Shown here piece by piece: positions 17,903-29,611 of a DNA stretch of 29,972 bases (position 1 is its first letter; every line of letters starts with the position of its first letter). The notes beneath the pieces are model-generated. The model searched no databases. It was not told the origin of the DNA and saw nothing but the letters and a program-made list of their open reading frames with translations. A program made the position numbers and the translations under genes. The DNA is from a virus (Duplodnaviria; Heunggongvirae; Uroviricota; Caudoviricetes), in the IMG/VR virus record IMGVR_UViG_3300032038_000042; one strand, given 5' to 3'.

Positions 17903-18298
17903 ATGAAGAAGTTTTGTTTGTTTGTTTGTTTGTTTGTTTGTTTGTTTGTTTGTTTGTTTGTAGGATGTGGAAATCCTTCAAACTCTTCAGATTCTGAAGC
18001 TACTTATATGTACGAAGGTGGTATCATACCAAGAACACAAATGGTGTTTAGAACTGATTGCACCTATTCAGAAATAAATAGTGCAAAAAATTACTTTCGT
18101 CAAATCACGATAGATGATTATTTTATAGAACATGATGTGCATATAGAAGAAATTCAAGAATTTTTACTGGAACATTCATCTAGAAGTGAAACCGAAACTG
18201 TTATAAATGCATTAAACAATACAGGAAATTGCATATGCTATTTTAACATAAATGGTAGGCCAGACTATGTATATTGGGTATACGGTCAAATAGAATAA
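17903..18298 (+). CDS. Lipoprotein with a simple-sequence-repeat-encoded signal peptide
   Basis: AGGAG SD, MKK, hydrophobic F(CLFV)4, lipobox LFVG-C and a Ser/Asn-rich tether. Confidence 0.8.
   Translation: MKKFCLFVCLFVCLFVCLFVGCGNPSNSSDSEATYMYEGGIIPRTQMVFRTDCTYSEINSAKNYFRQITIDDYFIEHDVHIEEIQEFLLEHSSRSETETVINALNNTGNCICYFNINGRPDYVYWVYGQIE
17913..17960 (+). repeat. Perfect tetranucleotide microsatellite (TTTG)12
   Basis: 48 bp, 12 uninterrupted units, counted directly. Confidence 0.97.
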
Positions 18299-18349
18299 TT
18301 CTACCTATAATAGACTTGATTCTTACTATTACTAGTAAATAATTTTTTA

Positions 18350-18379
18350 AAAAAGGTCACTTAAAAATGTGACCTTTTT
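18350..18379. terminator. Intrinsic terminator
   Basis: AAAAAGGTCAC-loop-GTGACCTTTTT. Confidence 0.85.
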
Positions 18380-18380
18380 C

Positions 18381-18410
18381 TGAACTTTTTCACTTCTTCA
18401 AGCCTATATT
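18381..18410 (+). promoter_or_regulatory. Putative promoter TGAACTTTTT-N14-TATATT upstream of the large ncRNA
   Basis: Same motif and spacing as at 27304 and 28805. Confidence 0.7.
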
Positions 18411-18415
18411 TTAGA

Positions 18416-19750
18416 CATCAAGTTTGATTAAATTCGTAGCTTTTTAAGAACTAATTACAAGTTGTTCACCTATATTGAGATAGCTTGAATTAAATCAGGT
18501 TGATGATAAGAGCTTGAAGCACTAAAAATGGAGTGTTAAAGTTGGGTTCGAATCCCACAAGTTCCAGAGGACTACAACAGAAATTCCTTAAATGGTGAGG
18601 TTGTAGGGTTCTAAGCTTCCCGTAGCTTAGACGTTCAAACTCCAACGAAGACGAAAGTCGAAAGAGGAGTCGGTACTGCTGGCAGAAATAAGCGGCCCTC
18701 ATAACAGGTGCACTCAGGTAGTAAAAGGTTCTATCGCAACAAAAACCTTACGTGTTAAAAGATTCAACTTAAAAGGTTGAAAACAAAAGGCTCATAACCT
18801 ACTTTTAACAAATGTCCTAAAATCGGATGAGGCTTTTTTTAAAAAGCTAAAAAGGATTAGAGGGTAAGCTGCTTCCGATTGCTGTAGGCTTACAATCAAA
18901 CCGGTTCAGATGTTAAGTAGATTTTCTGCAAAGCATTTGGAGTTTCTTGAAGGTGTAAGGTGTGTTAAAAGCTTTGCAATGTTAAAGTTTTTAGTTTTTC
19001 CTGAACTTTTTTAAAAGGTTTGATCGCTCGTGAGTTTCTTCTATCGTACCTCTTGAACTTAATTCACGAGTGGCTAATTCCAAGAATGCTGTTAAATCTC
19101 AAACAGCTAGTGTTGGGATAAATGGACTGCTGAGTAGATTGAAGGTTGAGATCTTTTTTCGAAAACCGGTTTGGTTGCCAGTCACCAAATGAAGCTACTG
19201 GTTCGCGAGGTTAAGAGACACCTTCCGGAAGTAAAAAAGAGCTCTACATTTTCCGCAGCAAGCGGGCAATTAGCGGTCGAAGAGCCGGATGAAAAACTTA
19301 AAAAGAGCTAAAGGTTGCTTAATTGCATAAAGGTGCTCTTTGAGATCCAAAAGTTAAACGTTTTGAACCGCCAAAATTGATACTTGAGGAGTTCCGGTAG
19401 CTGAAAAAGAGCCGTTGAGGGCAGCTTTCGTCCAAGTCGGCATAGGTGGAGGTTTTCAAGAAACTCTTTCCTCATTACGAATAGCCTTTCTACCAAATGG
19501 GTGGAGGCTGAGGTTTCTCGGCACCAAGATTAAGAAGCCGGGATTTAAAACTCCAAGGATCACGAGGTCCTAGGGCTTTGGAGAGATGAAGAATTACTGA
19601 GGCCCAGAAACTCTAAGAAACGAAGTACGATTAGGGGTAAATCGATCGTAAGTCCCTGAAAGGAAAAGGAGTATTGCGAAATTGAACGAAGAGTTACAAC
19701 TATTTAGTTGGAGTTCCTGCATTGAATTCCTTAGTTCTTTTTCTTACTTT
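18416..19750 (+). ncRNA. Large structured non-coding RNA (GOLLD/ROOL-like size class; family not assigned)
   Basis: No credible ORF over ~1.35 kb, higher GC than the flanks by eye, own promoter and terminator, many hairpins with G-U pairs. Confidence 0.75.
18510..18566 (+). ncRNA. tRNA-like element lacking an anticodon arm
   Basis: Acceptor-like stem GAGCTTG/CAAGTTC, D-like arm AGCACT/AGTGTT, T arm TGGG-TTCGAAT-CCCA. Confidence 0.65.
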
Positions 19751-19756
19751 TTCCGC

Positions 19757-19794
19757 AAGGTTGCGATGAATTCGCAACCTTTTTCTTTTTTTTT
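19757..19794 (+). terminator. Intrinsic terminator closing the ncRNA unit
   Basis: AAGGTTGCGA-TGAAT-TCGCAACCTT followed by T runs. Confidence 0.88.
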
Positions 19795-19855
19795 AAAATC
19801 AAAAAATAAGCGAGTTTTTGTTTCTATAATTTTTCTAGTAAAAGGAGTAAAAACT

Positions 19856-20716
19856 TTGATTTTTAACAAAATTAAAATTAATCACGAAATGCCTCTTGAA
19901 CTTATGCTCGATTCTCGTTTCGATGATTTGACAGATTACAGCTATGATTTGGTTCACATGAATGATGAAATTCCTGAGTATAAAAAATACTTCCAGGATT
20001 CGCTTGCAAAAGGTAGACAGGTACTTTTGGACAATTCTGTATTTGAATTGGATGAACCTTTTAACCCAGAAAAGTTTGTAGAAAAGATTAACGAGCTTAA
20101 ACCTACATGGTATGTAGTTCCTGACTTTTTGGACGATTGCGATGCTACAATTCGTTCAATGGATGAGTGGATTTCGGTTTACCTTCCAAAGGTTGTAGAA
20201 GGTCCAAAAATCATCGGAAGTATTCAAGGTAAAACACCTGCAGACATGGTTCGTTGTTATCAGAAAATGTCTAACGATCCTCATGTAGCTAAAATTGCAA
20301 TTACTTTTAACTCAGATTGTTATGCAGCTCTTTGTCCTGACTTGATGCAGGAACAGGAAGGTGAAAAAGTAGACATGCTTCAGGTTTGGTGTGAAGGTCG
20401 TCAGCGTTTCATTACTAAACTTGTTATGGATGGAATTTGGAACAACAACAAACCACATCATTTGCTTGGTTGTGCGTACCTTCGGGAATTTGCATATCCA
20501 CTTTATCACCGTATTTCAATTGAAACTTTGGATACTTCAAACCCGGTTGTTTGTGGTATAAAAGGTATTAAGTATGACGAAAAGCTTGGTAATCTTGAAA
20601 AGCCGAGTGTAAGACTTTATACAATGATTCACGATAAACTTACAGATGAGCAAAAAGATTTGATCGAATATAATATTCGAACATTTAGAAAAATAGTAAA
20701 CGGTGAAAATAACTAA
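19856..20716 (+). CDS. TGT (tRNA-guanine transglycosylase)-like TIM-barrel protein
   Basis: Start reassigned to TTG 19856 (AGGAG SD, TATAAT upstream). Motifs LLDNS, VVPD, SIQG, HHLLG and LDTS occur in the order seen in TGT-superfamily enzymes. Confidence 0.6.
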   Translation: MIFNKIKINHEMPLELMLDSRFDDLTDYSYDLVHMNDEIPEYKKYFQDSLAKGRQVLLDNSVFELDEPFNPEKFVEKINELKPTWYVVPDFLDDCDATIRSMDEWISVYLPKVVEGPKIIGSIQGKTPADMVRCYQKMSNDPHVAKIAITFNSDCYAALCPDLMQEQEGEKVDMLQVWCEGRQRFITKLVMDGIWNNNKPHHLLGCAYLREFAYPLYHRISIETLDTSNPVVCGIKGIKYDEKLGNLEKPSVRLYTMIHDKLTDEQKDLIEYNIRTFRKIVNGENN

Positions 20717-27680: not shown

Positions 27681-27765
27681 GGGCCGGTACGTTAATTGGT
27701 TAACGAACAGACTTTTAATCTGTAGGAGTTTTTTCCTGATGCGGGTTCGAGTCCCGTCCGGCTCA
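27681..27765 (+). tRNA. trnK: tRNA-Lys(UUU) with an atypical long variable arm
   Basis: Cloverleaf GGGCCGG/CCGGCTC, anticodon loop CTTTTAA, 17-nt variable region, T loop TTCGAGT. Confidence 0.85.
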
Positions 27766-27778
27766 AGAAGAATTATTA

Positions 27779-27850
27779 GGGCGTGTGGCACAGAGGTTGT
27801 GCACCAAACTTTTAATTTGGATAAGGTAGGTTCGAGTCCTATCACGCTCA
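27779..27850 (+). tRNA. trnK: tRNA-Lys(UUU)
   Basis: GGGCGTG/CACGCTC, CCAAA-CTTTTAA-TTTGG, GTAGG-TTCGAGT-CCTAT. Confidence 0.92.
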
Positions 27851-27907
27851 GCAATATAGCTGCTAGACTTCCTTCCAGTCTTAGAAGTCGTTCACATATT
27901 TTTTTTT

Positions 27908-27981
27908 GGATCGTTAGCTCCAACGGTTAGAGCGGAGGATTGTTAATCCTAAGGTTGCAGGTTCGAATCCTGCACGATCCG
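27908..27981 (+). tRNA. trnN: tRNA-Asn(GUU)
   Basis: GGATCGT/ACGATCC, loop TTGTTAA, discriminator G. Confidence 0.93.
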
Positions 27982-27984
27982 AGA

Positions 27985-28042
27985 GGTAGATATAGGAGTT
28001 CAGTTCGATTCTGAATTTAAGTTGGTCAATCCTTAAGCTACC
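27985..28042 (+). ncRNA. Small tRNA-mimic (T arm plus loop-closed stem)
   Basis: GGTAG/CTACC closing stem, TTCAG-TTCGATT-CTGAA T arm, adjacent TTTAAG/CTTAAG hairpin. Confidence 0.5.
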
Positions 28043-28049
28043 ATTTTAT

Positions 28050-28121
28050 GGGGACTTAATTCAAGCGGTAGAATAGTGGACTGAAAATCCATATGTGAGG
28101 GTTCGAACACCTCAGTTCCCA
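28050..28121 (+). tRNA. trnF: tRNA-Phe(GAA)
   Basis: GGGGACT/AGTTCCC, GTGGA-CTGAAAA-TCCAT. Confidence 0.9.
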
Positions 28122-28124
28122 AAT

Positions 28125-28203
28125 ATAAAAAGCATAAGGTGTTCCTATTTTTGCTGATGAAGCAATACACTGGTAATGTATTTTATTACACCTCGCTTTT
28201 TAT
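28125..28203 (+). ncRNA. Small RNA sharing its terminal stem with the permuted tRNA; carries a GGU anticodon-like stem-loop
   Basis: AAAAGC-ATA-AGGTGT-TCCTATTT ... TT-ACACCT-C-GCTTTT enclosing ATACA-CTGGTAA-TGTAT. Confidence 0.65.
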
Positions 28204-28210
28204 TTTTTAT

Positions 28211-28285
28211 GGTGCTTGTGGTGGAGTGGTCTAACACGCTTGACTGTGGATCAAGATTTCGTCGGTCCGAATCCGACCAAGTACC
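28211..28285 (+). tRNA. trnH: tRNA-His(GUG)
   Basis: G-1:C73 pair, CTTGA-CTGTGGA-TCAAG, variant T loop TCCGAAT. Confidence 0.92.
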
Positions 28286-28291
28286 CCGATT

Positions 28292-28404
28292 AGTAAATCT
28301 TTCGAGTTTACGATGGTGGAGTAGCAACCAGAAAAGCGGGCAACAGCGTTGCACTGACCTGCTGAATGGCTAAGCCAGACTGGAAGAGTTGCTAAAGATT
28401 TACT
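28292..28404 (+). ncRNA. Unassigned structured RNA between tRNA-His and tRNA-Thr
   Basis: AGTAAATCTT/AAGATTTACT and TAGCAAC/GTTGCTA stems enclose a multi-branch core (GCGGG/CCTGC, TGGC/GCCA). Confidence 0.6.
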
Positions 28405-28410
28405 TTTTAT

Positions 28411-28483
28411 GCTACAATAGCTCAATTGGCAGAGCACGTGATTTGTAATCTCGGGGTTGTGGGTTCAATTCCTACTTGTAGCT
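28411..28483 (+). tRNA. trnT: tRNA-Thr(UGU)
   Basis: GCTACAA/TTGTAGC, loop TTTGTAA. Confidence 0.93.
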
Positions 28484-28486
28484 TTA

Positions 28487-28558
28487 GACCCGTTCGCCAA
28501 GTGGTAAGGCTCCGATCTGCAAAATCGGTATACATGAGTCCGATTCTCATACGGGTCT
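28487..28558 (+). tRNA. trnC: tRNA-Cys(GCA)
   Basis: GACCCGT/ACGGGTC, CCGAT-CTGCAAA-ATCGG, discriminator T, variant T loop TCCGATT. Confidence 0.92.
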
Positions 28559-28563
28559 CTTTT

Positions 28564-28686
28564 AAAAGCAAAGGTTGTTCCTATTTAAAGATTGTTAATC
28601 CGTGTGTCGATGGTTCGAGTCCATCCAATTTCCGAAAGGAAGTTGTAGCTCAGCTGGTAGAGCAACGTAAATTACAACTCGCTTTT
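28564..28686 (+). ncRNA. Circularly permuted tRNA-Asn(GUU) mimic with Y-RNA (YrlA)-like topology
   Basis: Order is anticodon loop, T arm, acceptor 3' strand, GAAA, acceptor 5' strand, D arm. The ends are joined by a bulged terminal stem. Confidence 0.85.
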
Positions 28687-28694
28687 AATTTCAT

Positions 28695-28766
28695 GGGCTC
28701 GTAGCTCAAAGGAAGAGTAAAGGTCTCTTAAACCTTAGGTTGTGGTGTCAGGGTCCACCGAGCTCA
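28695..28766 (+). tRNA. trnK: tRNA-Lys(CUU) with a non-canonical T loop
   Basis: GGGCTCG/CGAGCTC, AAGGT-CTCTTAA-ACCTT, T arm GTGG-TGTCAGGGT-CCAC. Confidence 0.8.
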
Positions 28767-28804
28767 AAACCTAAAAAGTAATTTAAAAAAAATGAAAAAA
28801 CTTT

Positions 28805-28834
28805 TGAACTTTTTGAAAGTTTTTTACATATAAT
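28805..28834 (+). promoter_or_regulatory. Putative promoter of the second tRNA unit
   Basis: TGAACTTTTT-N14-TATAAT. Confidence 0.7.
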
Positions 28835-28869
28835 ATTGTATATAACGAGTAAGAAACGTTATAAAGTTT

Positions 28870-28942
28870 GCCCTATTAGCTCAGTGGAAGAGCACTCGCC
28901 CTGTAAGCGAGCGGTCATTGGTTCGAATCCAAATATAGGGCT
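28870..28942 (+). tRNA. trnT: tRNA-Thr(UGU) with C33
   Basis: GCCCTAT/ATAGGGC, CTCGC-CCTGTAA-GCGAG, short variable loop. Confidence 0.85.
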
Positions 28943-28944
28943 TT

Positions 28945-29274
28945 ATGAGTAGAAGTTATAAAAAAGAAATCGGTTTCGGTAAATCTACTTTTGGTTATGC
29001 AACTCGAACAAAAAAGACAAGAGTTGACTATGCAAACAAAAGAAGACGAAAGAAAGGATTGCCAATTGTTAAGCAGCATTTTCGTTCCGATATGCAAACG
29101 GTGGAAGATTACATTGATTGGATTAAAAGAGATTTTGAGCCAAGAGGTTATGTAATTTGTCATTTTAATGCTTACTACAAGATTTATCAAGAGTGGCTTA
29201 ATGGTCGTAAAGAAACAGAAGAGCTCATTAGAGAGTATGCTGTTAAGCTTTACAATCGCGATAAATCGAAATAG
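28945..29274 (+). CDS. Basic hypothetical protein within the tRNA cluster
   Basis: 109 aa, MSRSYKK start, K/R-rich. The ATG is 2 nt after the tRNA-Thr 3' end. Confidence 0.8.
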   Translation: MSRSYKKEIGFGKSTFGYATRTKKTRVDYANKRRRKKGLPIVKQHFRSDMQTVEDYIDWIKRDFEPRGYVICHFNAYYKIYQEWLNGRKETEELIREYAVKLYNRDKSK

Positions 29275-29281
29275 TTTGTAT

Positions 29282-29355
29282 GGAGTGTTAGCTCAGTTGG
29301 TAGTAGCAAGCGGCTGTTAACCGCTAGGTCGCAAGTTCGAACCTTGCACACTCCG
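29282..29355 (+). tRNA. trnN: tRNA-Asn(GUU)
   Basis: GGAGTGT/ACACTCC, AGCGG-CTGTTAA-CCGCT, discriminator G. Confidence 0.93.
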
Positions 29356-29361
29356 CTTCAA

Positions 29362-29474
29362 CGTTAATAAAGCCGAGGTAGCGAAACGGGTCACCTAGGA
29401 AGGAGTGGCAGTGAGGTAGCGAAGGTTTAGATGCGGTAGACGTTTTAGAAATTCGCGAATCCGATGAATTAACG
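29362..29474 (+). ncRNA. Unassigned structured RNA with repeated GAGGTAGCGAA
   Basis: CGTTAAT/ATTAACG closing stem, 11-nt direct repeat at 29375 and 29413, GTCAC/GTGGC hairpin. Confidence 0.5.
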
Positions 29475-29499
29475 ACAAGAAAAAATTTCTAGTTTTTTT

Positions 29500-29535
29500 G
29501 GCAGGTTTTCACTCCCAAAAACCTGCTACTTTTTT
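29500..29535 (+). terminator. Probable terminator
   Basis: GGCAGGTTTT / AAAACCTGCT followed by a T run. Confidence 0.6.
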
Positions 29536-29537
29536 GT

Positions 29538-29611
29538 GCTGGAGAAGTTCATAAGGCTTGAACGTCGGACTCATATTCCGAATGTAGTTGGTTCGAATCC
29601 AACCTTCAGTA
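29538..29611 (+). tRNA. tRNA with CAU anticodon (elongator Met or lysidine-modified Ile2)
   Basis: GCTGGAG/CTTCAGT, TCGGA-CTCATAT-TCCGA, GTTGG-TTCGAAT-CCAAC. Confidence 0.88.

Follow-up and report, generated by a model that had tools for sequence, protein, structure and literature searches.

The locus analysed here raises the question of what a phage makes from a long stretch of its DNA that carries no protein gene. The stretch lies in a 29,972-nt segment of phage DNA (the window, by which we mean the whole of the DNA analysed), and the initial annotation, made from the letters alone, had viewed 18416-19750 as a transcription unit with no credible ORF, for a giant structured RNA, either an expanded member of a class such as GOLLD or ROOL or something new. 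Our analyses confirm that positions 18414-19790 of this DNA, from a large rumen phage, are a non-coding RNA gene in its own right and not the remnant of a protein gene, and allow its ends, its internal architecture and its possible role to be discussed with graded confidence.

Genomic setting and boundaries of the RNA gene

The window is phage DNA with genes for a DnaC-like loader, a DnaB helicase, an exonuclease and an AAA ATPase (PHROGs, Pfam), and contains 11 tRNA genes at 27681-29611 (Rfam), the nearest of them 7.9 kb from the RNA unit. The eleventh tRNA (28695-28766) scores 47.3 bits with Rfam and was missed by ARAGORN; another T-arm-like stretch occurs near 28590-28670, and two spacers of the same cluster look structured (28288-28405, z -2.35; 29357-29475, z -0.84). 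Protein searches reached two relatives, G001 and G153, as fragments of 140 and 59 kb with estimated completeness of 35% and 15%, respectively, so that a jumbo phage group fits. The RNA unit is missing from the available parts of both fragments, which is no proof that these phages lack it. Behind a tRNA-Leu gene, G001 has a region of ~1.1 kb free of ORFs (L118:4370-5450), possibly another large RNA together with a mobile-element end; it has no Rfam gathering match and no kinship to the window RNA by nhmmer.

As originally claimed, the unit has no credible ORF: no start-codon ORF of more than 70 aa lies inside it. A 344-aa ORF (19682-20716) overlaps its last ~110 nt only formally, and the overlap is spurious because the 25 aligned homologues of this ORF start at or after the codon at 19856. 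The downstream protein (19856-20716) is widespread in phages (2,188 matches among 2,651 candidates), in some cases fused to PF00551, and has no match in Pfam, NCBIfam or PDB. For the upstream protein (ORF 17903-18298) we found no Atlas match above 0.84, only weak lipoprotein-like leads; its signal-peptide-like N-terminal part contains a TTTG tandem repeat (17915-17960) whose length may vary. The two terminators thought to bracket the unit differ in their standing. The right one is an intrinsic terminator hairpin with a T run (19757-19795, + strand; predicted at 19757-19781), whereas the left one, a terminator-like hairpin with A/T-run flanks (18350-18379) that closes the upstream gene and is possibly bidirectional, is present in the sequence but missing from the terminator prediction. 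The promoter-like motif (18382-18410, + strand) is indeed common to the unit and two tRNA units: it has three exact sites in the window (18382, 27305 and 28806), each ahead of a non-coding unit, against 0.03 expected by chance, a figure that flatters the motif in that the pattern was derived from those very sites. A similar -10-like box precedes the unit in four of the homologous loci introduced below (L083, L086, L098 and L100), and in every long-enough locus the unit begins just past such a box and is closed by a hairpin that resembles a terminator.

The unit is present in each of the six rumen RNA runs examined (X15-X20, from five studies), the runs having been chosen for containing the stretch. 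The public runs that contain it come, where labelled, from gut or rumen (20 of the 24 rows listed; 16 studies), and six are recorded as RNA. Among the RNA contigs listed, none extends beyond 18458 or 19760; the DNA run X3 spans 18250-19000, and the DNA run X1 placed no contig on the window. Contig depth reaches 100 on the RNA unit and at most 8.4 on the flanking genes, which is not an expression level: the RNA data are contigs, devoid of strand, true ends or level, and the stretches left uncovered are uninformative.

Homologous loci, modular architecture and covariation

Homologues were found through a block, shared with a distant relative, that had been recognised via RNA contigs. A pattern made from this block yielded 21 metagenome loci, five of them real by nhmmer and the other 16 chance matches. 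Two of the homologous loci (L081 and L098) are 77% identical to the window over 18816-19749 and three (L083, L086 and L100) are 62-65% identical locally; with the window, they represent about three independent lineages. Searching 50,697 phage records by blastn with the window unit and the L100 unit gave no match, and searching plasmids with the unit gave one 29-nt chance match only. IMG/VR yielded no homologous unit via two single proteins, and via four DNA patterns it returned 0, 5, 1 and 86 loci, of which nhmmer upheld not one. A GTDB pattern scan hit two loci, both by chance, and the 80 loci of downstream-gene relatives contain no homologous unit.

Region 18820-19592 (+ strand) is common to all five homologues and forms a conserved core of ~770 nt with multi-stem junctions, candidate pseudoknots and A-rich linkers. 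It is flanked by a variable 5' module of short hairpins (18598-18819, + strand), partly common to L100 and L086, and by a variable 3' module (19593-19697, + strand), common to L098 and L081, loosely to L100, and replaced in L083 and L086. The units measure 1,377, 1,289, 1,242, 1,131 and about 1,095 nt. Of the core blocks compared with L100, one is 87% identical over 127 columns and another 78% over 151 columns; the nearby DnaB is 60% identical as protein and 52% at 91 four-fold sites. One-base indels fall within the most conserved core blocks, and no long reading frame is common to the homologues. DnaC/DnaB lies nearby in the window, L083 and L100, and the genes downstream of the RNA differ between loci, which rules out a cis-regulator or leader of one downstream gene.

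Some further features of these loci deserve a record of their own. Upstream of the RNA promoter, on the DnaC side, L083:3590-4150 and L100 (- strand) have an AT-rich stretch of ~600 bp in which imperfect repeats, both direct and inverted, give an origin-like look. Downstream of the RNA, at L083:6007-7380 and L100:1-1221, a transposon gene, presumably TnpB-like, adjoins a dCMP-deaminase-like gene. L098:2590-5735 switches abruptly away from the phage-like part, with genes that we take to resemble gliding-motility genes of Bacteroidales, and represents a chimeric contig or an integration junction.

Folding supports an RNA encoded on the + strand. The segment 18414-19400 folds with z -3.03 on this strand (0 of 20 shuffles as good), and 18578-19721 with z -2.98 on the + strand and -0.82 on the - strand, the excess over chance being limited to the former; segments of 150 nt give a modest signal that is unevenly spread (z +0.2 to -4.3). 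All nine two-armed helices of the initial annotation that were looked up are found at their places within 1 nt, and its GAAA tetraloop hairpin (18650-18659) is visible in both the sequence and the predicted fold. As structural elements, two of these helices fared worse: 19170-19189 is not kept in homologues, and 18572-18606 does not exceed its shuffles in stability (z -0.34 for 18560-18620).

The suggested check for covariation turned out positive, compensatory changes being present by RNAalifold, by a helix count and in a hand model. RNAalifold finds both-side changes in 27 of 132 pairs. The blind helix count gives 11 helices with at least two double changes versus 4.05±1.67 (maximum 7) in 40 column shuffles; helices with at least one double change are not enriched over column shuffles (53 versus 49.3). 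The hand model comprises 96 pairs in 19 helices, with 97.6% of cells paired and double changes in 21 of the 96 pairs, versus 12.7 after shuffling of the letters and 0-3 after sliding of the model, a comparison that favours the model, its pairs having been picked from the same sequences on which it was scored. Changes that preserve G-U pairs also occur among the homologues.

The pattern of variation is instructive in several individual elements. A long stem (19026-19071, + strand; z -3.39) turns over in sequence between lineages around an invariant loop motif (19045-19054). It is one of two long stems, out of register in the alignment, that fold in every homologue with different letters, the window row of the other being read from sequence and fold. 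A candidate pseudoknot (18824-27 with 18874-77) has one double change, and in a long-range helix (19173-77 with 19522-25) a bulged base varies among three letters with the pairs kept. In the most conserved block (19347-19398, + strand), with invariant runs of 20 and 32 nt and several possible partners, the pairing is ambiguous because no position varies. Palindromic loops are seen as well; being invariant, they offer no covariation, and self-pairing through them was not counted. A variant in two RNA runs has 19172-19236 replaced by 26 other bases, and part of the conserved core is therefore dispensable.

The ends of the RNA and a tRNA-shaped element

The predicted precursor opens with a leader hairpin (18414-18505, + strand; 18350-18499 z -4.3) of non-conserved sequence, within which the X20 contig starts (18458). 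It is followed by a tRNA-shaped element (18510-18566, + strand) with a 7-bp acceptor containing a G-U third pair, a D-like arm and a T arm (z -2.03; 5 of 200 shuffles equally good). The element thus has the acceptor stem and T arm of a tRNA and lacks an anticodon arm and a full cloverleaf; ARAGORN calls no tRNA there, and RF00005 does not match. A different tRNA-shaped element, again with a G-U third acceptor pair, occupies the same place in L100 and L086, its T stem compensated between the two. The element is missing from the 5' side of the unit in L083 and L098 and is therefore optional. RNase P and RNase Z are specific for tRNA-like shapes, and on this basis the element is likely a processing signal. 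A tmRNA was rejected: the acceptor closes within 57-80 nt, and the sole model match is a 15-nt T arm (7 bits versus 47). Just behind the RNA terminator, L083:5383-5520 and L086:1341-1475 have another tRNA-shaped sequence, with acceptor, D arm and T arm, in which a ~90-nt three-hairpin insertion replaces the anticodon loop; it is not called by ARAGORN and folds with z -1.05.

The two ends of the RNA may be joined by a terminal helix, with a predicted 5' arm at 18566-18597 and a predicted 3' arm at 19698-19733 (both + strand). Among the contigs listed, those of X16, X17, X18 and X19, from four studies, all start at 18578 with no loose end, making this the candidate mature 5' end; X15 starts at 18535. 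The candidate 3' end at 19720-19721 rests on a single contig, that of X16, which ends on adapter at 19720/21 (its last A may be the adapter's); X19 ends at 19714 and X15 at 19760. When 18578-19721 is folded, 18578 pairs with 19719 (p 0.76) in a helix of ~18 bp, beyond which two bases stay unpaired at the 3' end. With the end placed arbitrarily at 19600, 10 end pairs form as well, and the helix is not predicted in the longer precursors 18415-19790 and 18510-19760 (p 0.0). End-pairing helices of 10-26 bp, enclosing 941-1,016 nt, are predicted in homologues. In a blind scan for 5' x 3' duplexes they stand out from the null in L098 (-28.8 kcal/mol versus -12.1±1.2), L081 (-24.2 versus -10.5±2.0) and L086 (-25.5 versus -18.9±1.7). 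The window helix is the top duplex of its scan, yet no better than the shuffled null (-21.5 versus -21.2±2.2), and those of L083 and L100 are not above the null or not the top duplex; by targeted folding, L083 forms 19 bp around an inserted hairpin and L100 10 bp, with p only 0.35-0.39.

RNase III leaves 2-nt 3' overhangs, in long-range duplexes too, according to the available text of PMC11780869. The contig ends and the end helix fit, as a weak hint, an RNase III-type cut that would yield ~1,144 nt, and for a double cut precisely at 18577/18578 and 19721/19722 we consider the case evenly balanced. The unit would resemble stable RNAs matured by RNase III, such as pre-rRNA and the B. subtilis SRP scRNA (the latter named as such in a title within the reference list of PMC11780869), in having its ends in a long-range helix with candidate 2-nt 3' overhang geometry; it differs from them in that its cut is read from contig ends alone and that it has no sequence relation to rRNA. 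The ~1.35 kb first given as the size of the unit can be refined: the stable species likely measures ~1,140 nt, and the unit is modular. The end-pairing helix, the tRNA-shaped element and the shared contig start at 18578 are additions to the initial annotation.

Known RNA families, rival readings and a possible role

The Rfam comparison suggested at the outset (GOLLD, ROOL, introns, RNase P, tmRNA) was run and matched no family. The unit has no gathering-level match, only noise at E<=10 in 18300-19900 (best E 0.54), and the five homologous loci have no family match at E<=5, again only noise, while the controls score (ROOL model, 130.4 bits on pMP118; GOLLD model, 196.7 bits on pCBMA213_1). Two profiles of the unit have 0 matches at E<=100 to the control ROOL and GOLLD RNAs; on further control candidates (Dp-1, pMP118, pCBMA213_2, 151 genomes) the GOLLD model found no match. 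A group I or group II intron was rejected, the unit having its own promoter-like motif and terminator and no catalytic-core model match at E<=10; what we took for a likeness to group II domain V was considered and then dropped. The proposal of an expanded GOLLD or ROOL member thus finds no support (no match at E<=10, no reciprocal profile match), whereas that of a new large structured RNA does: the unit covaries, is present in rumen RNA libraries and has a promoter-like motif and a terminator to itself. Judged by profile comparison, the window RNA is a new family, belonging to none of those catalogued in Rfam. A literature search that covered mainly open-access main texts found no description of it.

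As far as the available text of PMC12286853 and PMC12990946 describes them, ROOL and GOLLD are abundant phage RNAs that form cages, and GOLLD (RF02032) resembles the window RNA in being phage-borne, over 800 nt long and built of variable modules around a conserved part, with a tRNA-type element within the unit. The window RNA is large (~1.1-1.4 kb) and phage-encoded like GOLLD, and near tRNAs only loosely, the cluster being 7.9 kb away; it differs in lacking a model match, in being longer and in lying outside a tRNA array. GOLLD has a conserved 3' and a variable 5' region, whereas here the core is central, both ends vary and the 3' module is replaced in L083 and L086; the end-joining helix with its candidate RNase III-type cut is a further difference. 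With ROOL (RF03087) the window RNA shares rumen origin and phage context, and perhaps a multi-junction fold with likely pseudoknots, as portrayed in the accessible part of PMC5737381. Junctions and one pseudoknot with a double change are seen in the window RNA, the lengths differ and the fold is only partial. Compared with the same description, it is about twice the 581-nt average of ROOL, matches neither its model (~574 positions) nor a reciprocal profile, and has invariant runs that reach 32 nt, highly conserved bases being scarce in ROOL. Phage transcripts that are abundant, lack ORFs and come close to it in size are also reported, in the text available, for Staphylococcus phage K (lncRNA region 37679-38832, 1,154 nt; PMC9241854) and Vibrio phage ICP1 (~800 nt; PMC7567579), and with the former in print the size of the window RNA is no record. 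The unit profiles do not match the phage K lncRNA; matches were confined to the tRNAs next to it, hit by the tRNA-shaped element (E 0.019).

Several other readings of the locus have to be weighed. To a decayed protein gene or a DNA-level element such as an origin, with transcription incidental, we give next to no credence: the closeness of DnaC/DnaB in the window, L083 and L100 and the AT-rich repeats ahead of the unit in the latter two would suit it, but folding is strand-specific, changes preserve G-U pairs or are double, indels are non-triplet, no long frame is shared and the RNA contigs are bounded by the unit, so that covariation largely refutes this reading. Better grounded, though still unlikely, is a cassette that is cut apart after transcription into several shorter RNAs, namely a leader, a tRNA-shaped spacer, a 5' module of ~250 nt and a core of ~770-900 nt. 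The 5' and 3' modules are swapped or lost among loci, breaks fall between about 18735 and 18885, or later, in the listed contigs of X15, X16, X17, X18 and X19, and depth is lower on the 5' piece than on the core (15.9 versus 100.7 in X17; 2.6 versus 28-41 in X19); against this, a single X20 contig bridges 18458-19000 unbroken, the break region is a low-complexity T/A run, contig depth is unable to rank parts, and the terminal helices enclose core and 3' module in five homologues.

A single RNA might also have a different occupation. That the core is a ribozyme, either a diverged or permuted RNase P-like RNA or a twister-type self-cleaving module, appears very improbable. By eye, the block 19386-19397, with 19284-19289 as a possible partner, looks like what we take to be the P4 region of RNase P, and L086 has a Twister-P3 match (977-1030; 22.9 bits, E 1.8), but this is below the gathering score of 39.9, the window segment has no twister match at E<=10, neither the window nor L098 can form twister P2, and the would-be cut site is bridged by RNA contigs from four studies. 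The models of RNase P and of group I and group II introns also find nothing at E<=10, and 10-mer matches to E. coli RNase P RNA number 0. We also doubt, less strongly, that the RNA serves as a decoy or RNP scaffold whose invariant loops would bind ribosomes, translation factors or an RNA-cutting defence of the host. Invariant single-stranded motifs sitting on stems that turn over, a phage with at least 11 tRNA genes in the window, and the GOLLD pull-downs of ribosomes reported in the available text of PMC12286853 speak for such a role; yet near-exact 10-mers of the invariant blocks are not enriched against E. coli 16S, 23S and RNase P RNA, sense or antisense, at E<=20 no profile matches the rRNA or RNase P RNA of E. 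coli, and no protein gene is a constant neighbour. Isolated likenesses of 10-14 nt to 23S led nowhere, the 6 matches being out of order and the null mean being 4.9, and rRNA mimicry was rejected.

The unit is conserved as a non-coding sequence, carries compensatory pairs, has modular ends and is present in RNA libraries, and the account of it that we favour, with somewhat more confidence than doubt, is that of a conserved, covarying phage RNA gene whose ~1,375-nt precursor would be trimmed to a self-assembling structural RNA of ~1,140 nt. Transcription, to go by the promoter-like motif, would run from near 18415 to the terminator at ~19790, giving the precursor; the leader would be released at the tRNA-shaped element by RNase P/Z-type enzymes, and an RNase III-type double cut in the end-joining helix would leave one end-paired, multi-domain RNA. 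This would fold around the invariant loops and A-rich linkers and might then assemble with its own copies into a cage or scaffold, after the manner of ROOL and GOLLD. That the product is one molecule is probable; that its job is self-assembly into a cage or scaffold is a tentative proposal by analogy. Bolder and rather unlikely is the idea of a new kilobase class of phage RNA, matured like ribosomal or SRP RNA, that would build an RNA-only particle larger than the GOLLD cages or act as a catalytic or ribosome-binding machine centred on the 50-nt invariant block.

Bacteria and phages have few large, intricately folded RNAs, and what these do is an open question. The window RNA adds a family unrelated by model to GOLLD and ROOL, and it is longer than the solved examples, which reach 833 nt in the table available from PMC12990946. 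With natural module-swap variants and predicted exact ends, it offers a ready construct for cryo-EM and end-mapping, and would make it possible to test whether giant phage RNAs form cages as a rule.
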